From: Candidatus Sigynarchaeum calidifontis
GTDB taxonomy: Archaea > Asgardarchaeota > Lokiarchaeia > Sigyniarchaeales > Sigyniarchaeaceae
DNA length: 44,593 bases
Direction: 5' to 3'
Assembly: GCA_030587475.2 (NCBI GenBank)
Contig: JAUQYZ020000164.1
Location: 1-44,593, forward strand
Shown: piece after piece, positions 12,949 through 37,461 of the stretch
Position numbering within the stretch: the stretch's first letter is position 1
Layout of the letters: each line of letters begins with the position of its first letter
Program-made: the position numbers and the translations under genes
Notes under the pieces: generated by a model
Database searches by the model: none
What the model was told of the DNA's origin: nothing
What the model saw: only the letters and a program-made list of their open reading frames with translations

Positions 12949-13209
12949 ATGATGATTCAAGTTGAAGATTCCCGGACAGGGAAATTAATCAAATTAGACG
13001 TAAAAGAGCATCACAAGATAGAGAGGATAGTTGACATCATTTTAAAGCACATGGGCCTGCTCCAGGAGAACCGATCGTACACGCTCGTTCTCGATGGGAA
13101 GGAACTCAACCCGCAACTCACGATCGAAGACTGCATTCATAAGATGGGCTTGAAGGAGAACGACAAGCTCACGCTCTGGGCCCGGGTCGTCGGCGGTAGC
13201 GCTTTTTAA
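12949..13209 (+). CDS. Ubiquitin-like protein (beta-grasp), precursor with GG followed by SAF
   Basis: IQVEDSRTGKLIKLDV...LVLDGKEL...TIED..GLKENDKLTLWARVVGG-SAF parallels the ubiquitin pattern. Confidence 0.88.
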   Translation: MMIQVEDSRTGKLIKLDVKEHHKIERIVDIILKHMGLLQENRSYTLVLDGKELNPQLTIEDCIHKMGLKENDKLTLWARVVGGSAF

Positions 13210-17165: not shown

Positions 17166-18983
17166 TTACTTGAGTTTTGTGCCGCATTTGTTGCAAAATC
17201 GCATCCGGTTCGACACGGTATAGCCACAGCCAGGGCACTTGATGATGTCCGAGGTTGCTGCAGCTGCGGCTCCACCAGCACCCGCCTTGACTTCAGACTT
17301 TTTCTTCTGCTTTTTCATGTGCAGCAAATCCTCGGGAATGGATGTCTGGAAGAAAATGCTCATACCGCTGGGCCTGGCAGCCGCGCCGCCGCTGCTGACG
17401 GTTTTCTTTGCCGTGAAACCAGCCGAGAACGGGACGGCGCCACCTCCACTACCACCCGCCGGGGTCGCCGCGTGTGATTTGGCCGTGAGCGCGGCGAGGA
17501 AACTGGCCGTCGACGAGCTGCCGGCGGGTTGCGCTGCTGCTGGCTGCGGTGCGGCCTTGGCCGGTGAAGCAGCCGGTGCAGCAGCCGCTGGCTGCTTGGC
17601 TGCCGGCTGCTTGGAGAAGACGACTGGCCCGCTTGCTGTTGCCTTGGCCGCTGGCTTCGCGGCGGCGGGTACCGGGGCAACTTCCTCGATCTCGGGCAGC
17701 GCCTCCTCGACCCTGGGCTGCGCCACGGGGATCGGCTTTGCCTGGCGTGCCGGCACAGCGGGCCTCGTCGGCGGCAGCTCGGGCATCTCGACCGGCGGCT
17801 CCTCGGCCATCTCCTCGGCTGCCGAGAAGAGTGCCGCGGAACTGGCTGCTTTCGGCGCGGGGGCGGGCACGGGTGCCACGGGAGTTGCCACGGGCTTGGG
17901 CTTCACTGCCGGCTGTGCCCTGGGTTGCGGCTGCGCCGCGGGCACGCTCAACGCGATCGGCGTCGGCTTCGGGAGGGGCTGCACCGAGGGAACTGCTGGC
18001 CGGGAAACGGGCTGCACCGCTGGCCGAGCTGGCTGCTGCGCCGGGGTTGCAGGCCGGGCAGCAGGCTGAACTGCTGGCTGTGTCGCGGGCCGGGGCGCGG
18101 GTGCCGCTGCCGGCTTCGGGGGGCTTGTTGCCGCGGGCTTGGGAACGGGCGCGGCGACCGGCTTCGGGAGAGACGCCACTGCTGGTTTCGGTGGGGCTAC
18201 CGCCGCGGGCCTCGGGAGCGGTTGGACCGCGGGCACGGCGGCCGGCCTCGGCGCGGGCGCTGGCGCGGGTGCCGGCGCGGGAACCTCCACGTCGGCATAC
18301 TCGTCAGCGCCGCCGAACTCGTCCGCGACCGGGATCGCCGCGGGCGCTGGCGCGGCTTGCACCTGCGGGATGGCCAGCTGTGGCCTCGCCGCCGCGGCAG
18401 CGGGCGCGGCTGCTGCCATGCCGGGCACCACGCCAAGCTGCTTCATGACGTTCGGGTATTCCTCGGGAGGCATCTTGATGTTCATCATGGCGTAGGCGAG
18501 CCCGTGAAAGCAGTCGCCGACCGATTCGCCGGTCTTGGCCGAGGTCTCGTAGTAGTAGGGGATGCCCATCTGCTTGCAGAACGCCCAAGCCTCCTCCGCC
18601 GACACGACACGTGGCAGGTCGATCTTGTTGCCGACGAGCACGTAGGGCACCTTGCCCGCGTTGGACTCGAGTTCCTCGACCCAGTTCGCCAGGTGGTCGA
18701 ACGATTCCCTGTTCGTGACATCGAACACGAGCAGCGCGCCCATGGCACCGCGATAATAAAGGGGACGCACGAAACTGAACCTTTCTTGACCGCCCGTGTC
18801 CCATATTTGGAGCTTCGCACGCTTCTGCGCTACTTCCAGCAATTTGACAGAGAAATCGACACCGACGGTCATCTTGTACGATTCCTGGAAGTATCCTTGC
18901 GAGAACCGGACGGTCAACGCCGTCTTGCCACAGCCACCATCACCGAGCACGATGCACTTGAATAGGAAGTCATATTCTTCCAT
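17166..18983 (-). CDS. Rab-like small GTPase with long Pro/Ala-rich tail and C-terminal zinc ribbon
   Basis: GDGGCGKT, TVGVDF, KLQIWDTGGQERF, YYRGA, LVFDVT, GNKID, ETSAK; tail ends CPGC..FCNKCG. Confidence 0.93.
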   Translation of the reverse strand: MEEYDFLFKCIVLGDGGCGKTALTVRFSQGYFQESYKMTVGVDFSVKLLEVAQKRAKLQIWDTGGQERFSFVRPLYYRGAMGALLVFDVTNRESFDHLANWVEELESNAGKVPYVLVGNKIDLPRVVSAEEAWAFCKQMGIPYYYETSAKTGESVGDCFHGLAYAMMNIKMPPEEYPNVMKQLGVVPGMAAAAPAAAAARPQLAIPQVQAAPAPAAIPVADEFGGADEYADVEVPAPAPAPAPAPRPAAVPAVQPLPRPAAVAPPKPAVASLPKPVAAPVPKPAATSPPKPAAAPAPRPATQPAVQPAARPATPAQQPARPAVQPVSRPAVPSVQPLPKPTPIALSVPAAQPQPRAQPAVKPKPVATPVAPVPAPAPKAASSAALFSAAEEMAEEPPVEMPELPPTRPAVPARQAKPIPVAQPRVEEALPEIEEVAPVPAAAKPAAKATASGPVVFSKQPAAKQPAAAAPAASPAKAAPQPAAAQPAGSSSTASFLAALTAKSHAATPAGGSGGGAVPFSAGFTAKKTVSSGGAAARPSGMSIFFQTSIPEDLLHMKKQKKKSEVKAGAGGAAAAATSDIIKCPGCGYTVSNRMRFCNKCGTKLK

Positions 18984-29895: not shown

Positions 29896-30099
29896 TCAGT
29901 CGAACCGCAATAGCTTGCCGCACTTGGAGCAAGGTACCTTGCGTTCGGATAGCTTGATGGCACAACCGATGCAATACATCGTGGAGCATTCGGGGCAAAC
30001 GTATATGGTTCCCTGGATGGCCCTCTTGCACGTGGGGCACTGCGCGGTCCATCTAGCCTTGCAGCTCGGGCACTCGAGATAAAGTGATTTTTTTTCCAT
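29896..30099 (-). CDS. Small multi-CxxC zinc-finger protein, C4C4 RING-like (copy 1)
   Basis: CPSC, CPTC-x10-CPEC-x4-CIGC-x10-CSKC. Confidence 0.8.
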   Translation of the reverse strand: MEKKSLYLECPSCKARWTAQCPTCKRAIQGTIYVCPECSTMYCIGCAIKLSERKVPCSKCGKLLRFD

Positions 30100-30151: not shown

Positions 30152-30364
30152 TCATGGCCAGGACCACAAGGGCTTGCTGCACTTGGAGCACGAATCCTTG
30201 CGTTCGGATAACATTATGGCGCATCGCATGCAGTAGAACACGACGCATTCCGGGCAAACGTGAGCCGCCATTTTGATCGTTGCCTTGCAATAGGCGCACT
30301 GCATTGGCCACTTGGCCGTGCAGCTCGGGCACTCGAAGTGGGCCGGTTTCGGTTCCATGATCAA
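30152..30364 (-). CDS. Small multi-CxxC zinc-finger protein, C4C4 RING-like (copy 2, tandem paralogue)
   Basis: CPSC, CAYC-x10-CPEC-x4-CMRC-x10-CSKC; shares ECPSC..W, LSERK and CSKC with copy 1. Confidence 0.8.
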   Translation of the reverse strand: MIMEPKPAHFECPSCTAKWPMQCAYCKATIKMAAHVCPECVVFYCMRCAIMLSERKDSCSKCSKPLWSWP

Positions 30365-31443: not shown

Positions 31444-32337
31444 TCATTTCTTGATGCTGCAGGCCCAACAAGACGGGTTCTTGGTCTTCTCGATGAAGGT
31501 GAAGGTGTTCCTCGTCCCGTCGTAGCGGAGCTCCTTGCCGTAGACGGGGGGCCCGACGTTCTCGTTCCAAGTGCCTTGTTTCTTGTACTGGTCAAGGCCG
31601 AGCAAGATCTTCACGATTTGCTGGGCTTGCAGCGCCCCGATGATGGACGTGGTCGTGATGATGTTGGCCATCTTCATCTCGGTGAAGCCGTCCTCCTTGG
31701 CGATCTCTTGTCCCGTGCACGAGAACTTCTTGAACATGTTATCAAGATCCTGGGACGACATGCTGCACTGGAGGCACGGGCAGTCCTTCACTTGCGGGAC
31801 CACGCAAAAAATGCTGCCGTACCAGCCATCGATGCCCGAGTCGACGAATGGTAAATCGTAGTAGTACGAGAACGAGTTGAGCTGGAGGCGGGCTTCCATG
31901 TTGTCGAGGCATGACGCGGTCGCGTTGCATTCCTTGTAGATGTCATCCTTCACGTCCTCGATCTTGCCCACGATCGGGATGATTTTCGTTCGCCCGAATT
32001 CCATGGCATTCCTTGCAACGATTTCTGCCTTGAACCGCTTCTGTTCCACGTCGGCTTCCTTGAAGAACACGCATCGGTTCAAGTTCGACCGGTCCACCGT
32101 GTCAAAATCCACGAGATAGATCTTGCCGACGCCCATCAGCGTGAGATTCTTCACGAGCTCGTTCCCGGTCGCGCCAGCGCCAACAACGAGCACCGTGCTG
32201 GCGCGAATCTTCTCCTGATCCCAGCCCTTGAGGCGTTTTTGACGGTCGAACAAGTCCTGGTTGATGTTTTCGACCCCCAGAACCGGAATATCGTCCACGG
32301 CGCATCCGGTACTTCCAGCTTCCTTTTTTTCGCTCAT
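31444..32337 (-). CDS. ThiF/E1-family ubiquitin-like activating enzyme (UBA3-like)
   Basis: FDRQ, VVGAGATGNELVKNL, DFDTVDRSNLNR, CLDNMEAR, CLQC...FSCT (putative catalytic Cys), C-terminal CWAC; start MSEKK at 32337. Confidence 0.92.
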   Translation of the reverse strand: MSEKKEAGSTGCAVDDIPVLGVENINQDLFDRQKRLKGWDQEKIRASTVLVVGAGATGNELVKNLTLMGVGKIYLVDFDTVDRSNLNRCVFFKEADVEQKRFKAEIVARNAMEFGRTKIIPIVGKIEDVKDDIYKECNATASCLDNMEARLQLNSFSYYYDLPFVDSGIDGWYGSIFCVVPQVKDCPCLQCSMSSQDLDNMFKKFSCTGQEIAKEDGFTEMKMANIITTTSIIGALQAQQIVKILLGLDQYKKQGTWNENVGPPVYGKELRYDGTRNTFTFIEKTKNPSCWACSIKK

Positions 32338-32408
32338 GGGAGGACCTCGCACGGCTGGTTCACGAGAAGCAAATCGAATCGCTTCACGCGTGTCCGAATC
32401 GAAAGAAC

Positions 32409-32888
32409 TCAACTCTTCTTTTCTCTGAGAACGGCATAGCTCACGTAGTGGTAGTGCTTTTCGTCGTCTATCTTGAAAAAAGCCCTCTCGCCACGGATGG
32501 GATCCACGACCAGGGCGACGTGGAACCCCTTGTTGAACATTTCCATGGTCTTGATGTCGACGGAACTCAAGAAAACGCCCAGGTTCGGGTGTGAATGCCA
32601 CCAGCCCGTGATGATCGAGCCCGGGTATTCCTTATCCTTCTTGGCTGACATCTCGCCGACAGCGCCGTCGATCACCTGGGTAAATATGGGTGATGTTTCG
32701 ATGAGTTCCGAGAATAAGAAACCGTTAATCATGACGTATTCTTTTCCCTTGTGCTTGTAAGCGTTGCCGACGAGCATCCCGATGATCTCGTACTTGTTGT
32801 TCTTGCAACGCGCCTCGATCTCGTCGAGAATGTGCTTCTGGATGTACACGTCATGCACGTACGCGGTCTTCTTGTCTTCGTCTGCCAT
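32409..32888 (-). CDS. JAB/MPN+ (Rpn11-like) metalloprotease/deubiquitinase
   Basis: EIIGMLVG, GWWHSHPNLGVFLSSVD (HxHx7Sx2D), ALVVDP. Confidence 0.93.
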   Translation of the reverse strand: MADEDKKTAYVHDVYIQKHILDEIEARCKNNKYEIIGMLVGNAYKHKGKEYVMINGFLFSELIETSPIFTQVIDGAVGEMSAKKDKEYPGSIITGWWHSHPNLGVFLSSVDIKTMEMFNKGFHVALVVDPIRGERAFFKIDDEKHYHYVSYAVLREKKS

Positions 32889-32899
32889 CTGGAATCACT

Positions 32900-33826
32900 T
32901 TACTGTGGCGGCTCGGTTTTATGTTCCTCGGTTTTTTGTGGTTCGCTGGTTTGTGCTTGGGACGAGAAAACATTTGACAACATCTGGCCAACGAGCGCGA
33001 AAAACTTGCCCTTGGCCTCGGGGTCTATGGCCGAGAATCCGTATGTCTTGAGCATCAAGTTCTTTTCGATCACGTCGGGCTCGAGCGCGACATCCTTCAT
33101 GTCTTGCATGTTTGCCAGGCAAACCAGCCGTCCCTTCCGGACGTTTGCCTTGAGCTTGTCGACGAACTTCCTCGTGCGGCTCACGTTCGAAACGCCGGAA
33201 CTGACGACGAGAATCACGATGTCGGCTGATTTTAACAGGTCAACATGGAGCCGGATCTCGTTGATCAGCGGTTCCAGCGTGAACTTGAAGAGATCCATCT
33301 GCTTCACGTTCTGGATGCCCTCGACAGCGACCGATTTCTTGTAGATCTCGTTGTCATTCTCGTCCAGGGAAAGGATGCCCTCGCCAGGGAAAAAATCGAA
33401 CAGCGTGGACTTGCCAACGCCTGGCTCGCCAACGATGACTATCTTGAGCGGCAAGGCGATAAGATCATCGACGATCTGGTCAAACGGGCGGAAGATGGTC
33501 ACGTTTCCGTTCCAGTTCTTGACCTGGTCGGCGAACATACGATGGAACTCGTTCTTGACCTTTTCAATGCGGCCTTGCACCTCCTCCTCCATGTCATCCT
33601 TGTCGCAACAGAAGACGAAGAGCAGGTCCGCGTCGCCGACGGAGTATATGAACCGAATGTCTTGCATGACCAGGCTTTCGATTTTCCCGCCCTTCACCTC
33701 GGAGCTGAATGAGGCCAGCGCCGTTAAAAAGCCGGAAATCAAGTCCTGGTCGACTTTTTTGTCGCCGTACTGCCTCGAATACATCAACAGCCCGCCGGTA
33801 CCAATTACCATGAAATTTCGTATCAT
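32900..33826 (-). CDS. Longin-like domain fused to a divergent small GTPase domain
   Basis: N-terminal GGLLMYS...DQDLISGFLTALASFSSE longin-like pattern; P-loop GEPGVGKST; no DxxG; G4 ANMQD; G5 FSA. Confidence 0.8.
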   Translation of the reverse strand: MIRNFMVIGTGGLLMYSRQYGDKKVDQDLISGFLTALASFSSEVKGGKIESLVMQDIRFIYSVGDADLLFVFCCDKDDMEEEVQGRIEKVKNEFHRMFADQVKNWNGNVTIFRPFDQIVDDLIALPLKIVIVGEPGVGKSTLFDFFPGEGILSLDENDNEIYKKSVAVEGIQNVKQMDLFKFTLEPLINEIRLHVDLLKSADIVILVVSSGVSNVSRTRKFVDKLKANVRKGRLVCLANMQDMKDVALEPDVIEKNLMLKTYGFSAIDPEAKGKFFALVGQMLSNVFSSQAQTSEPQKTEEHKTEPPQ

Positions 33827-33988: not shown

Positions 33989-34645
33989 ATGAGCAGTGAT
34001 CTCCACATGAATAACCAGAAGTTGCAAAGCGAGCTGTCTAGCATAGTCAACGAATTGGTAAATGCGAAGGGAAGGCTCCAGGCCGAAATACCCACGGCGG
34101 AAGCAAGGATTTCGGAACGCGACCCTGTATCCAAGGATTTGATCCGCGCACACGAAAGATTCAAGAAATTGCTCGTTGACCTGGACTTGATCGTGCCGGA
34201 TACAAGGTCGACGGTCGAGATCGGGGTTCCCGTGGACTTGAAGATCGATCCTGGAAGGATCCTCGTCGTCACGTGCCGGAACGTGTTGAAAGAGAAGCTC
34301 GACGAGTTCCAGGATCTCATCCTCGACCAGGTCACCACCGGGGGCCCGTTGGAGGCTCGGTATTTCAAGGAAATCAACCCTAACTTGCCAGATGCTGCCA
34401 TGGTGAACATCGAGAAGAAAATAGAGAAAGTCTTTAATCAATTGCTGAAAAAGGCACAAGACAAGGATTATATCATCTTGCTGGGGATCACCGACGACAA
34501 GACGGATCAACTCCTTTTCAAGTCGACAGAACTTGTCGCATCCCGGTCGGGCAAGCGTGTCCTTGTCGTGGAGGTCGATTCCATGCAAAGGCTATCGGAA
34601 AGCGAGGTAAAAAGATTGATCGCGAGGGCGATCCCGTCCCCATGA
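33989..34645 (+). CDS. DUF2100-like conserved archaeal protein
   Basis: TGGPLEARYFKEINPNLPDAAMVNIEKK motif. Confidence 0.7.
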   Translation: MSSDLHMNNQKLQSELSSIVNELVNAKGRLQAEIPTAEARISERDPVSKDLIRAHERFKKLLVDLDLIVPDTRSTVEIGVPVDLKIDPGRILVVTCRNVLKEKLDEFQDLILDQVTTGGPLEARYFKEINPNLPDAAMVNIEKKIEKVFNQLLKKAQDKDYIILLGITDDKTDQLLFKSTELVASRSGKRVLVVEVDSMQRLSESEVKRLIARAIPSP

Positions 34646-35034
34646 AGATCGACGATCTCAAGGTGCTATTGACCCAGAACGTCGGCCTTCAAGTCGACGT
34701 CCATGACACCTTCCTCACGAGCACCTGGAAGATCAGCGACAAGTTGCACAAGCAAATCGTATTTTTCCCGGATGAGGAAACGAAGCTGCTCTATATCTCC
34801 ATCTTGTTCGAGGAACGTAGCCAGGATCCGGAGTTCTTGGCCGCACTGCTGAAGGAAAATCTCAAGCTCTCGGTCGTGAAATTTTGCATGGACAAGGACG
34901 GGGGATTCATGGTGCTCGCCGAGCTGCCGGATGACTTCGTGACCGTGGACGTGATCCGGAAAGCACTTTTCGGCCTCTTCACCGCCGCCGGGCGATTCCA
35001 GGAATTGCTGGTAGCTGCCACCAAGGCGGAATGA
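34642..35034 (+). CDS. YbjN/type III chaperone-like fold protein
   Basis: 130 aa, acidic, LAALLKENLKLSVVKFCMDKDG pattern; ATGA overlaps on both sides. Confidence 0.6.
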   Translation: MKIDDLKVLLTQNVGLQVDVHDTFLTSTWKISDKLHKQIVFFPDEETKLLYISILFEERSQDPEFLAALLKENLKLSVVKFCMDKDGGFMVLAELPDDFVTVDVIRKALFGLFTAAGRFQELLVAATKAE

Positions 35035-36380
35035 CAACATCACCCAAACATCCCGCAAGACCCGGGCGATTTTCCATGCAAGCAGCCACGTATTACCTGG
35101 AAACATACGGGTGCACCCTCAACTCGAGCGATTCGGAGCTGATCGCGGGCTTGCTGCAAGGCGCGGGTTTCATCGAGGTAAAGGAACCGGGCGATGCGGG
35201 TTTCATCATTCTCAACACGTGCGGCGTTAAAACACCCACGGAACAAAAGATGCTCCACCAGATCCGCCAGTATTCGCGTCTCGAGGGGAAAATACTCGTG
35301 ATAGCCGGTTGCTTGCCACTCATCTTTAAAAAAAATCTGGATGTCTTGCGGAACATCGCCCCCAACTTTGGCGCCATGGTCGGCCCGAAGAACTACCACG
35401 AAATCCCGACGGTTTTCAAGGCACTTCAAAAAGGGGCGAGCAACATCATCAGGCTGGATGGCACGTCAATCGAAGACAAGATGTGCCTCGAACCCAAGCG
35501 CCCGAACAAGCATGTTGCGATCCTTGCCATCGCCGAGGGGTGCGTTGGAGTGTGCACCTATTGCTGCACCCGGTTCGCGCGCGGGATTCTCGACGCCTAT
35601 CCCGCACGATTTCTTGTAGAAAGATTCACCAAGCTCATTGATGCAGGGACAAAAGAAATATTCCTGACAGCCGAGGATTGCTCTGCATACTTCGATAGTC
35701 GCGGGGATGTCATGTTGCCCGACTTGATCGACATGTTCCTCGCGAAACCCGGGGACTATCGCATCCGGCTCGGCATGATGAACCCGAGAACGCTCTTGCC
35801 CGTGCACGAGCACTTGATACGGTCGATGCACGATCCCCGCGTGTTCACGTTCATCCACGTGCCTGTCCAATCGGGTTCTGACCGCATCTTGAAGGCCATG
35901 AACCGCCAGTACAAAATCATCGATTTCGTGAACATGATGGACGCGTTCAAGGTGGCTTTTCCCGGGATCACGATCGATACGGACATCATTTGTGGCTTCC
36001 CGGGGGAGACCGACGAAGACTTCCAGCAAACCGTGTCCTTGATGGAACGGGTGCGGCCGGATATCATCAACATCTCCATGTACGGCCATCGTCCCGGTAC
36101 AGCCGCGTCCAAGCTCAAGCAAGTCCCGTCGAGCACGGTCAAGGCGCGCACGCGGCAACTAACGGCCATTCACGAGGAAATCACGAGGAAAAACAACGAG
36201 CGCTGGTTGGGCTGGGAAGGAGATGCGATCATCGAGGAATACAACGAGAAAACCAGGAACTACCTCGCGAGGAACCGGTTTTACAAGCCCATCATCGTGG
36301 ATAGCGGCAACTTGGGCGAGATCGTGCGGGTAAAAATAACGGGAACCGTCTCGCACGTCTTCACGGGCACGGTCACTTGA
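35031..36380 (+). CDS. mtaB: tRNA methylthiotransferase (MiaB family, archaeal/eukaryotic MtaB/CDKAL1 type)
   Basis: ETYGCTLNSSDSE, NTCGVK, radical-SAM CVGVCTYC, RLGMMNP, HVPVQSGSD, DIICGFPGET, C-terminal TRAM. Confidence 0.9.
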   Translation: MTTSPKHPARPGRFSMQAATYYLETYGCTLNSSDSELIAGLLQGAGFIEVKEPGDAGFIILNTCGVKTPTEQKMLHQIRQYSRLEGKILVIAGCLPLIFKKNLDVLRNIAPNFGAMVGPKNYHEIPTVFKALQKGASNIIRLDGTSIEDKMCLEPKRPNKHVAILAIAEGCVGVCTYCCTRFARGILDAYPARFLVERFTKLIDAGTKEIFLTAEDCSAYFDSRGDVMLPDLIDMFLAKPGDYRIRLGMMNPRTLLPVHEHLIRSMHDPRVFTFIHVPVQSGSDRILKAMNRQYKIIDFVNMMDAFKVAFPGITIDTDIICGFPGETDEDFQQTVSLMERVRPDIINISMYGHRPGTAASKLKQVPSSTVKARTRQLTAIHEEITRKNNERWLGWEGDAIIEEYNEKTRNYLARNRFYKPIIVDSGNLGEIVRVKITGTVSHVFTGTVT

Positions 36381-37461
36381 TCGACATGCCTAGCCTTGCA
36401 ACGAAGTCGTGCATGATGCTTCCATAGTCCTTGCCGCACAGCTTCTCGATGTAAAAGCAGGCCATGCACTGGTCGAGTGCCTTGCTTTTCGGGGCACCGC
36501 AGCGTGGACACGAGGAAATCGCCGTGGGCTCGACGGGTTCCGTCAAGAGCGGGAATATGGCATCCATGAACTTCTTGATGTTGAAGAGCGTGCCCGGGTG
36601 TTCCCCTTCGAGGCGGTTGATGATGCCTCGTGCCTCGGCGCGGAAGATGTTCTCGTGGACGTGGGGGCACGGGCTCTCCTGGAAATCCCCCCCGATATAA
36701 TACAAGTACAAGACGATGTCATGCTGGATCAAGTCTTGCAAGGGCTTGATCTTCTTCACGAACGGCGAAACATCATCTTCGAGGGCCACCGACGCGGTTC
36801 GACCCATTCGATTCATGTCACCCTTGAACAAGTTGATTAAAAATGTTTCAACCTCGTCATTCAGATTGTGGCCGGTTGCAAGCTTCGTGGCATGCACCCC
36901 GGCTGCCAAGTCATTCAAGACACGGCGCCGGAGCACGCCGCAGATGGAACACGGCTTCCCGACGACCTTGGACGCGTTTTTCAGCTGGCCGCCGGGTTGG
37001 CCCTCGCATATCGACCGGTTGAACGCCGGGCCGGCGGCGGCGACGATCATCTCGTCGAGCGAGAGGCCGAATTCTTTCTTGAACGAGAACACGATTTGCT
37101 CGATTCCCAGCTCCTTGCACGTGTTGACCGCGATGCGGATGCTCTCGTCCCTGTAGTCCGCGATGCCCTCGTCGATCGTGATCACGACGGGCGGTTTCCC
37201 TTTTTTCGCCTGCTGAGCGAGCAGTTGCCGGTGGATCGTTGTCACGACACGCAACAGGACCGTGCTATCCTTCCCGCCCGACACGGCAAAGGCCACCTTG
37301 TCGCCCGGTTCCAGCATCCTGTACCGGGACATGGTCCTCCGCACCTTGCTCTCCACCTCCCTTAAAAAACACGCCTTGCACACCTTCTCGCCGGAATGCA
37401 CCCGCTCCATCACGGGTCGGGATTTCTTGCAGCGGACGCAAGCCGGCAATTTCTCAGTCAT
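36373..37461 (-). CDS. ttuA: TtuA/NcsA/Ctu1-family tRNA 2-thiolation enzyme
   Basis: N-terminal CVRC..CKAC, PP-loop SGGKDS, CSICGVLRR, TGHNLND, CP, C-terminal CPRC..CMAC. Confidence 0.9.
   Translation of the reverse strand: MTEKLPACVRCKKSRPVMERVHSGEKVCKACFLREVESKVRRTMSRYRMLEPGDKVAFAVSGGKDSTVLLRVVTTIHRQLLAQQAKKGKPPVVITIDEGIADYRDESIRIAVNTCKELGIEQIVFSFKKEFGLSLDEMIVAAAGPAFNRSICEGQPGGQLKNASKVVGKPCSICGVLRRRVLNDLAAGVHATKLATGHNLNDEVETFLINLFKGDMNRMGRTASVALEDDVSPFVKKIKPLQDLIQHDIVLYLYYIGGDFQESPCPHVHENIFRAEARGIINRLEGEHPGTLFNIKKFMDAIFPLLTEPVEPTAISSCPRCGAPKSKALDQCMACFYIEKLCGKDYGSIMHDFVARLGMSIK

Follow-up and report, generated by a model that had tools for sequence, protein, structure and literature searches.

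In a 44,593-nucleotide stretch of the genome of the Asgard archaeon Candidatus Sigynarchaeum calidifontis (NCBI GenBank assembly GCA_030587475.2, contig JAUQYZ020000164.1; the whole stretch is called the window below, and the archaeon the host), three co-oriented genes encode a longin pseudo-GTPase, termed LG here, a stand-alone JAB protease, and an E1-type activating enzyme. This three-gene run is a fragment of a larger locus, which in relatives also contains genes for an E2 conjugating enzyme and a ubiquitin-like modifier (Ubl), and the module made up of these genes is restricted to two families of one Asgard order. It can be said with great confidence that the linked Ubl pathway is real and with considerable confidence that LG is a dedicated component of it. 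As for what LG does there, the idea that it is a covalent substrate of the Ubl is put forward tentatively, its main rival being that LG acts as a non-covalent scaffold.

The complete locus and its inheritance

Orthologues of the E1 (about 50% identity) were found in 70 of the 135 genomes of one sister family, and synteny was counted over the 52 sister-family loci that carry one. JAB is followed by E1 at all 52, E2 comes next at 50, and a convergent Ubl gene is present at 49; a gene of the LG clade lies directly upstream of JAB at 46, 10 of these being fusions of LG with TPR repeats and a C-N hydrolase. Because the same clade precedes JAB so consistently despite the abundance of longin-like open reading frames (ORFs; about 27 in the host), the LG–JAB adjacency exceeds chance. 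It recurs in the three other genomes of the host's family (in one of them divided between contig ends) and in four additional assemblies. The six loci without LG directly upstream comprise one contig end, one LG fragment, three with LG beside Ubl nearby or on another contig, and one (genome G032) in which none was found. A metagenome scan added one LG locus, which adjoins a gene for a membrane RING-like protein.

The modifier encoded at position 12949 of the window is 63–81% identical to the Ubl of the sister-family loci. Its predicted model matches ubiquitin, NEDD8, and SUMO (TM 0.72–0.78), there being no ThiS or MoaD among the top 50 matches, and the precursors of the orthologues continue for 0–15 residues past Gly-Gly. 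A preliminary description of the window had proposed a Ubl conjugation/deconjugation unit with this Ubl as its modifier; both ideas are borne out by relatives, where E1, JAB, and the orthologous E2 and Ubl are linked, and the Ubl at 12949 is thus supported, on sequence grounds, as the predicted cognate modifier of E1 and JAB. The description had also stated that the operon contains neither E2 nor Ubl, which is true of the three-gene run, but the unit does have an E2, whose gene belongs to the operon of the sister family and, in the host, lies on contig C42. In the host, the genome search for an E2 that the description had suggested returned a single orthologue (48% identity), a canonical HPN-type UBC protein (Pfam UQ_con, 3e-15). 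The module is therefore dispersed in the host's family, since the Ubl gene, the E2 gene, and LG-JAB-E1 lie apart; each of the dispersed genes occupies a stable chromosomal site among housekeeping genes. The host E2 (L081:536-1027) ends in an acidic-hydrophobic tail, DDILVID, and DDIIII-like tails are conserved in the sister family; such a tail might serve to dock on the Ubl or take the place of the C-terminal UFD that the E1 lacks (see below).

Fusions of the module Ubl were encountered in two genomes. In G279 (L234:4911-6539), two Ubl-like repeats are fused ahead of a C-terminus that weakly resembles EndoU/BECR RNase toxins (scores of 0.9 or less, a lead), and in G232 (L240:2-1297), the Ubl, which ends in GA, is fused N-terminally to a long unrelated domain. 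These fusions may be payloads released by JAB. Relatives of the Ubl were not found in the viral contigs searched.

Co-inheritance was profiled over 154 genomes of the order, presence being read by hand from search tables with one query and one threshold per gene. LG, E1, E2, and Ubl are all present in 67 genomes, none of them is in 75, and the remaining 12 have partial sets, mostly in incomplete assemblies. Mapped onto a 91-genome reference tree, for which the canonical E1, E2, and JAB served as a three-gene proxy, module presence switches about 20 times through gains or losses. LG tracks E1 in 16.5 of 17 independent pairs, and the reverse never occurs. Searches of the 75 genomes devoid of module genes gave no member of the LG clade, and every genome in which an unlinked LG copy was seen has other module genes too. 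LG remains adjacent to Ubl after rearrangement (G262, G236), and about 15 satellite loci combine a G-domain–TPR gene with a Ubl gene, without E1, E2, or JAB. The preliminary description had made its proposed link depend on the synteny of LG in relatives; the survey found LG both syntenic and co-inherited. The module was not found in the family that we take to be the home of the cultured strains MK-D1 and Lokiarchaeum ossiferum, and neither the Ubl nor an orthologous E1 was found outside the order among 400 genomes searched. Close homologues of LG carry the labels Lokiarchaeia or Sigynarchaeota.

Matches to the E1 at 33–40% in other orders were rejected as representatives of the same module, since they belong to E2-E1 clusters or to a JAB-E1 pair without LG. 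Such a pair is found in G041 (L127:1428-7429), where JAB and a 291-amino-acid E1 (35–39% identical to that of the host) close a co-oriented run that opens with an SMC-like ATPase and includes a zinc-finger gene; LG, E2, and Ubl were not seen within that locus.

The enzymes, the RING-like family, and LG

JAB scores above the curated Pfam cut-off (JAB, 5.8e-8) with its JAMM residues intact (Table 1), and it is predicted to be both the maturase of the pro-Ubl and a deconjugase. The E1 contains one ThiF domain (Pfam ThiF, 4.9e-46). Its earlier label, "UBA3-like", has been dropped as unspecific: compared with the sequences of PDB structures, the protein matches UBA1 best (1e-26), then UBA7 and UBA6, and after these UBA2/UBA3 (1e-17) and MoeB (7e-16). 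Since the protein stops right after its last zinc ligand (4 residues past the second CxxC; orthologues have 287–300 amino acids), it has no C-terminal UBL/UFD domain, and with only about 35 residues between the Cys207 region and the next core helix, it departs from the UBA3-type layout. On this ranking of PDB sequence matches, it is classed as a UFD-less single-domain E1 and not as a UBA3 type. The ATP loop, both zinc pairs, and the catalytic Cys are near-invariant in 56 E1 orthologues, as are, in the orthologue alignments, the catalytic residues of JAB and E2 and the Gly-Gly of the Ubl.

Some E1 variants were set apart. The 451-amino-acid E1 of one assembly was considered as an E2 fusion and rejected, its extra part being a low-complexity tail. 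In G003 (L094:8743-9084), the E1 breaks off after about 95 residues and the remainder was not found; this is probably an assembly break in a genome that is 63% complete. Elsewhere in the host (contig C61:1616-4570), a 985-amino-acid frame has two ThiF domains in a UBA1-like layout and recurs in three relatives of the host's family (730–820 amino acids).

An eight-Cys (C4C4) RING-like gene lies within 800 bp upstream of Ubl at 26 of the 52 sister-family loci and adjoins almost every satellite locus. Strong matches to this family occur in 76 of 79 module-positive genomes and in 8 of 75 negative ones (median of 5 copies versus 0), and the family tracks the module in 13.7 of 17 independent pairs, most copies being away from the operon. 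The operon RING-like domain forms the end of proteins with 5–8 predicted membrane helices. The host has 9 strong copies, 6 of which are membrane-anchored (480–2300 amino acids), while two small soluble ones are encoded 1.1–1.5 kb past E1. It is likely that this family is the E3 of the module.

Pfam finds no longin match in LG; the fold emerges from an AlphaFold model (pLDDT 85, pTM 0.82). In fold searches with this model, residues 1–126 match the longins of VAMP7, Sec22, and delta-COP (Z 13.6–14.5, root-mean-square deviation about 2.5) and residues 124–289 match Arf-type G domains (Z 15–16). The DSSP order of the N-terminal part (beta-beta-alpha-beta-beta-beta-alpha-alpha) is that of the longin fold, as in VAMP7, Sec22, and the AP small subunits (Z 13.3–14.5 for the longin matches as a whole). 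The predicted structure thus agrees with the longin plus P-loop GTPase of the preliminary description, and the motifs justify its prefix "pseudo". The P-loop is intact (GEPGVGKST; G1 is intact in 73 of 77 LG-clade sequences), and the Asn and Asp of G4 and the G5 region are retained; across the clade, the switch-I Thr is lost, there is no in-register DxxG at G3, and G4, reading N[FMY]QD (NMQD in the host), has lost its Lys. In the nearest paralogue of LG, a longin-Arf-like protein, PT, WDFAGQ, and NKQD are intact, and all three motifs are invariant in 11 sister paralogues. LG keeps the fold and G1 of an active Arf/Rag-type GTPase but not its switch-I Thr, DxxG(Q), and NKxD, and it probably binds guanine nucleotide without normal hydrolysis.

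Lys164 is found in 89 of 89 LG-clade sequences, including satellites with a decayed P-loop, and in 0 of 11 paralogues; it adjoins the lost switch-I Thr and, to judge from the alignments, may either accept the Ubl or bind phosphate. A prediction of the LG–Ubl complex, with both partners supplied as alignments, scored 0.27 against a mark of 0.32 and is counted neither way. A trafficking role for LG is unsupported, the longin fold alone being no proof of it. At several loci (L084, L150-L152, L158, L163, L166, L174, L181), two or three tandem, diverged copies of LG precede JAB, which suggests LG heterodimers.

The role of LG and rival explanations

In the mechanism proposed here, JAB would cut the pro-Ubl after Gly-Gly; the motifs are observed, and the activity is expected from Caldiarchaeum Rpn11. 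The UFD-less E1, presumably a homodimer, would then adenylate the Ubl and load it onto Cys207, as the observed residues would allow, and the cognate E2 (catalytic Cys101 in the host), whose orthology and linkage are observed, would take it over. The C4C4 RING-like E3s, which co-occur with the module and are mostly membrane-anchored, would link cues from the outside or the membrane to conjugation. LG would be the most likely target, with Lys164 as the first candidate site; the presence or absence of the Ubl, and not GTP or GDP, would set the state of LG, and JAB would reset it. Operon-encoded substrates have a precedent in Helarchaeia, where UEV-Vps23, a non-enzyme, is a proven substrate that is mono-ubiquitinated by its own operon (10.1101/2023.07.25.550441). 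The general claim, that the host has, besides its canonical ubiquitin operon, a second dedicated Ubl pathway whose own downstream switch is LG, is evenly poised. The complete receptor-to-switch circuit, in which membrane sensors with cytoplasmic RING tails employ a Ubl, E1, and E2 of their own for the modification of LG at Lys164, conjugation replacing GTP hydrolysis and JAB providing the reset, is unlikely to hold in every part.

Several points weigh against this mechanism. The matching profiles of LG, E1, E2, and Ubl are not independent of synteny, because linked genes are deleted, transferred, or missed by assemblies together, and the satellite loci form one clade, so they represent one or a few events and not fifteen. 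Genome G032, which is 100% complete, retains JAB-E1 without a detected LG. Lys164 adjoins the lost Thr and might have a part in nucleotide binding rather than accept the Ubl. As to the RING-like family, its profile was built from module-adjacent copies and is thereby biased toward module-positive genomes, and its matches are weak (TFIIH p44, 7.5e-5; RNF4, 1.7e-4), with C1/PHD-type folds scoring similarly; because of this training set and of the weak matches to RING, C1, and PHD models alike, E3 activity is something that we infer.

The main rival keeps the same pathway but makes LG a non-covalent scaffold or regulator, whether an E2/E3 adaptor, a Ubl reader, or a nucleotide-gated longin membrane tether; the substrates would then be the RING receptors or further membrane proteins, which the Ubl would mark for sorting or turnover. 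Scaffolding is a common role of pseudo-enzymes, and strand pairing is how Ras-family G domains bind ubiquitin-fold partners. The 2–3 tandem copies of LG and its fusion to TPR repeats are adaptor-like, and the satellites that pair a G domain with a Ubl have no enzymes. However, a substrate would fit these observations equally, and an invariant, clade-specific Lys164 persists in satellites in which the P-loop has decayed; this rival appears unlikely, if deserving of attention. It is much less probable that LG is only co-transcribed and co-transferred with the Ubl enzymes, with no molecular tie between them. Longin and GTPase genes are indeed abundant, one old adjacency can be inherited, and there are five informative loci without an intact LG directly upstream; but in 3 of these 5, LG has re-joined the Ubl gene, and neither the absence of the clade from the 75 module-free genomes nor the specific, conserved changes in the active site of LG would be expected of a passenger.

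An antiviral or conflict system of the Bil type (Ubl, E1, E2, and JAB), with LG as its sensor or as the carrier of an effector, would account for the patchiness of the module, for the conflict between the module tree and the reference tree in 13 of 20 strongly supported splits (as lateral exchange would give), for the 10 loci with an LG–TPR–C-N hydrolase fusion, whose hydrolase part matches the PADLOC DRT nitrilase model (5.9e-16), and for the Ubl fusions to possible toxin domains, which are leads; moreover, the E1 lacks a UFD, like BilD (PMC10557695). Yet the reference tree is a three-gene proxy, the host-family genes sit at fixed sites among housekeeping genes and form no cassette, the E1 has one adenylation domain where BilD has two (the BilD model gives just 2.7e-4), and the E2 is of the canonical HPN type. 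The TPR-hydrolase was rejected as the core effector, since the host's family lacks it and module-free genomes also encode it. Defence is improbable. Least probable of all, to the point of being scarcely credible, is a SAMP/Urm1-type sulfur relay in which E1 and JAB would work for an NcsA-like tRNA thiolase whose gene lies 2.5 kb upstream (36373-37461). NcsA-like and MtaB-like genes do flank the operon throughout the host's family; the sister family, however, has an operon E2 and no NcsA at the locus, and the host has two shorter ThiF/MoeB proteins elsewhere. Membership of the SAMP/UbaA sulfur carriers was rejected, given the E2, the wrong modifier fold (that of ubiquitin, NEDD8, and SUMO), and a score of 63 bits for the UbaA model, whose cut-off is 450.

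The TPR and C-N hydrolase proteins form a large family of their own in the sister family (about 1280 amino acids, up to 8 copies per genome), with an intact E-K-C triad and a match to the PADLOC DRT nitrilase model (L085:5884-8496, L088:3188-7021, and many others), and are fused to LG in some lineages.

Known systems and the surroundings of the locus

The closest enzymatic parallel is the Ub/E1-like/E2-like/srfp operon of Caldiarchaeum subterraneum with its Rpn11 (Hennell James et al. 2017, PMC5654768). Both systems have a pro-Ubl with a tail after Gly-Gly, a JAMM protease, an E1 with a single adenylation domain and a zinc site, an HPN-type E2, and RING-like genes nearby, and in the module, the di-Gly ubiquitin-fold precursor, the ATP loop, zinc ligands, and Cys of the E1, the E1-linked HPN E2, and the JAMM zinc site are all present. 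The module differs in that its E1 lacks a C-terminal UBL/UFD, its operon is headed by a longin pseudo-GTPase, its Ubl is convergent or dispersed, its candidate E3s are multi-copy and mostly membrane-anchored C4C4 proteins, and a canonical operon coexists with it.

This canonical operon (Ubl, a 409-amino-acid E1, E2, JAB, and RING) is on contig C26 of the host; its E1 is present in 125 of the 154 genomes versus 74 for the module E1, and the two E1s of the host are 27% identical. The canonical Lokiarchaeia operon and the Asgard Ub-ESCRT clusters (Hatano et al. 2022, PMC9192718; Lu et al., 10.1101/2023.07.25.550441) have the same enzyme classes as the module, and ESCRT genes were not seen at module loci. 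In Hodarchaeia, a Rab-like GTPase gene lies beside ubiquitin (10.1101/2023.07.25.550441); neither publication describes a longin-GTPase link. LG shares its longin and small G-domain architecture with the longin-fused Rag/Arf-like GTPases of Asgard archaea (Liu et al., 10.1101/2020.10.19.343400; Tran et al. 2024, PMC10933270) but lacks G2, G3, and the G4 Lys and is bound to a Ubl operon, whereas the GTPase genes of MK-D1 are generally not in operons with regulators (Tran et al. 2024, PMC10933270). Bacterial Bil anti-phage systems (Chambers et al., PMC10557695; Hoer et al., 10.1101/2023.09.04.556158) resemble the module in having Ubl, E1, E2, and JAB, a UFD-less E1, and a patchy distribution; the module differs in its one adenylation domain, canonical E2, RING-like partners, and additional pseudo-GTPase and, in the host's family, in lying outside any defence-island context. 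Asgard archaea are thus already known to have longin-GTPase fusions, substrates encoded in operons, and, in one case, a Rab-like gene within a ubiquitin cluster; the LG operon itself is not described in the literature searched, from which subscription papers and supplementary tables (e.g., of asCOG neighbourhoods) were excluded.

A eukaryotic analogy is offered by the membrane RING ligase RNF152, in that a membrane RING tags a small GTPase and alters its state; no homology to the RING-like proteins of the module is implied. RagA is reportedly ubiquitinated by RNF152. Rheb, too, is a target of RNF152 (PMC6355928). Since only two families of a single order have the module, it is on present evidence no ancestor of the eukaryotic circuit, and it informs on what Asgard parts can do and not on eukaryotic inheritance; it remains a hint that archaea tag small-GTPase switches in eukaryotic fashion. 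Almost no natural targets of archaeal ubiquitin cascades are known, and Asgard small GTPases, rarely in operons, are hard to pair with regulators. If LG is modified, the module would be a direct prokaryotic link between Ubl chemistry and the small-GTPase fold, and Asgard archaea would have several parallel Ubl pathways, each with a dedicated modifier, as in eukaryotes. As a small soluble set of five proteins plus candidate ligases, it is suited to being rebuilt in vitro.

Table 1. Module-related features of the window.
Feature	Position	Strand	Remarks
LG (longin and Arf-like pseudo-GTPase)	33826-32900	minus	308 aa; longin about aa 1-123, G domain about aa 124-287
JAB, stand-alone JAB/JAMM metalloprotease	32888-32409	minus	159 aa; E34, H98, H100, S108, D111
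JAB-E1 spacer	32338-32408	minus	71 bp; GAGG ribosome-binding-like motif at its end
E1, single adenylation domain	32337-31444	minus	297 aa; GAGATG ATP loop, SNLNR, zinc ligands C188/C191/C290/C293, predicted catalytic C207 (FSCTG)
Cognate Ubl (predicted), ubiquitin-fold modifier	12949-13209	plus	precursor ending GG-SAF; orthologue of the operon Ubl of relatives
Small soluble C4C4 RING-like protein, candidate E3	30152-30364	minus	family co-occurring with the module
Second small soluble C4C4 RING-like protein, candidate E3	29896-30099	minus	54-57% identical to the neighbouring copy

The three ORFs are present and spaced as first described, with 11 bp between LG and JAB (32889-32899) and the longer spacer between JAB and E1. 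The E1 start is the ATG that follows the GAGG motif; a longer reading, a GTG ORF from 32601, was rejected because it overlaps JAB and has no orthologue support. A scan for sigma-70 promoters and terminators, of a type not suited to archaea, gave results at chance level. Upstream, the run borders on a divergently oriented SepCysE-family (DUF2100) gene; downstream, a nucleotidyltransferase gene converges on it. In the host's family, a conserved block lies upstream of LG (33989-37461 in the window) and consists of the SepCysE-family gene, a YbjN-like gene, an MtaB-type methylthiotransferase gene, and the convergent NcsA-like tRNA thiolase gene. At the canonical operon on contig C26 (L082:5350-11448), the Ubl has a long N-terminal extension and ends in STAG-M, not GG, and a convergent 585-amino-acid VWA-like gene carries the same Ubl at its C-terminus. 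Finally, 4 kb from the Ubl gene, positions 17166-18983 of the window encode a Rab-like GTPase whose motifs are intact and which is joined to about 400 additional residues and a C-terminal zinc ribbon.

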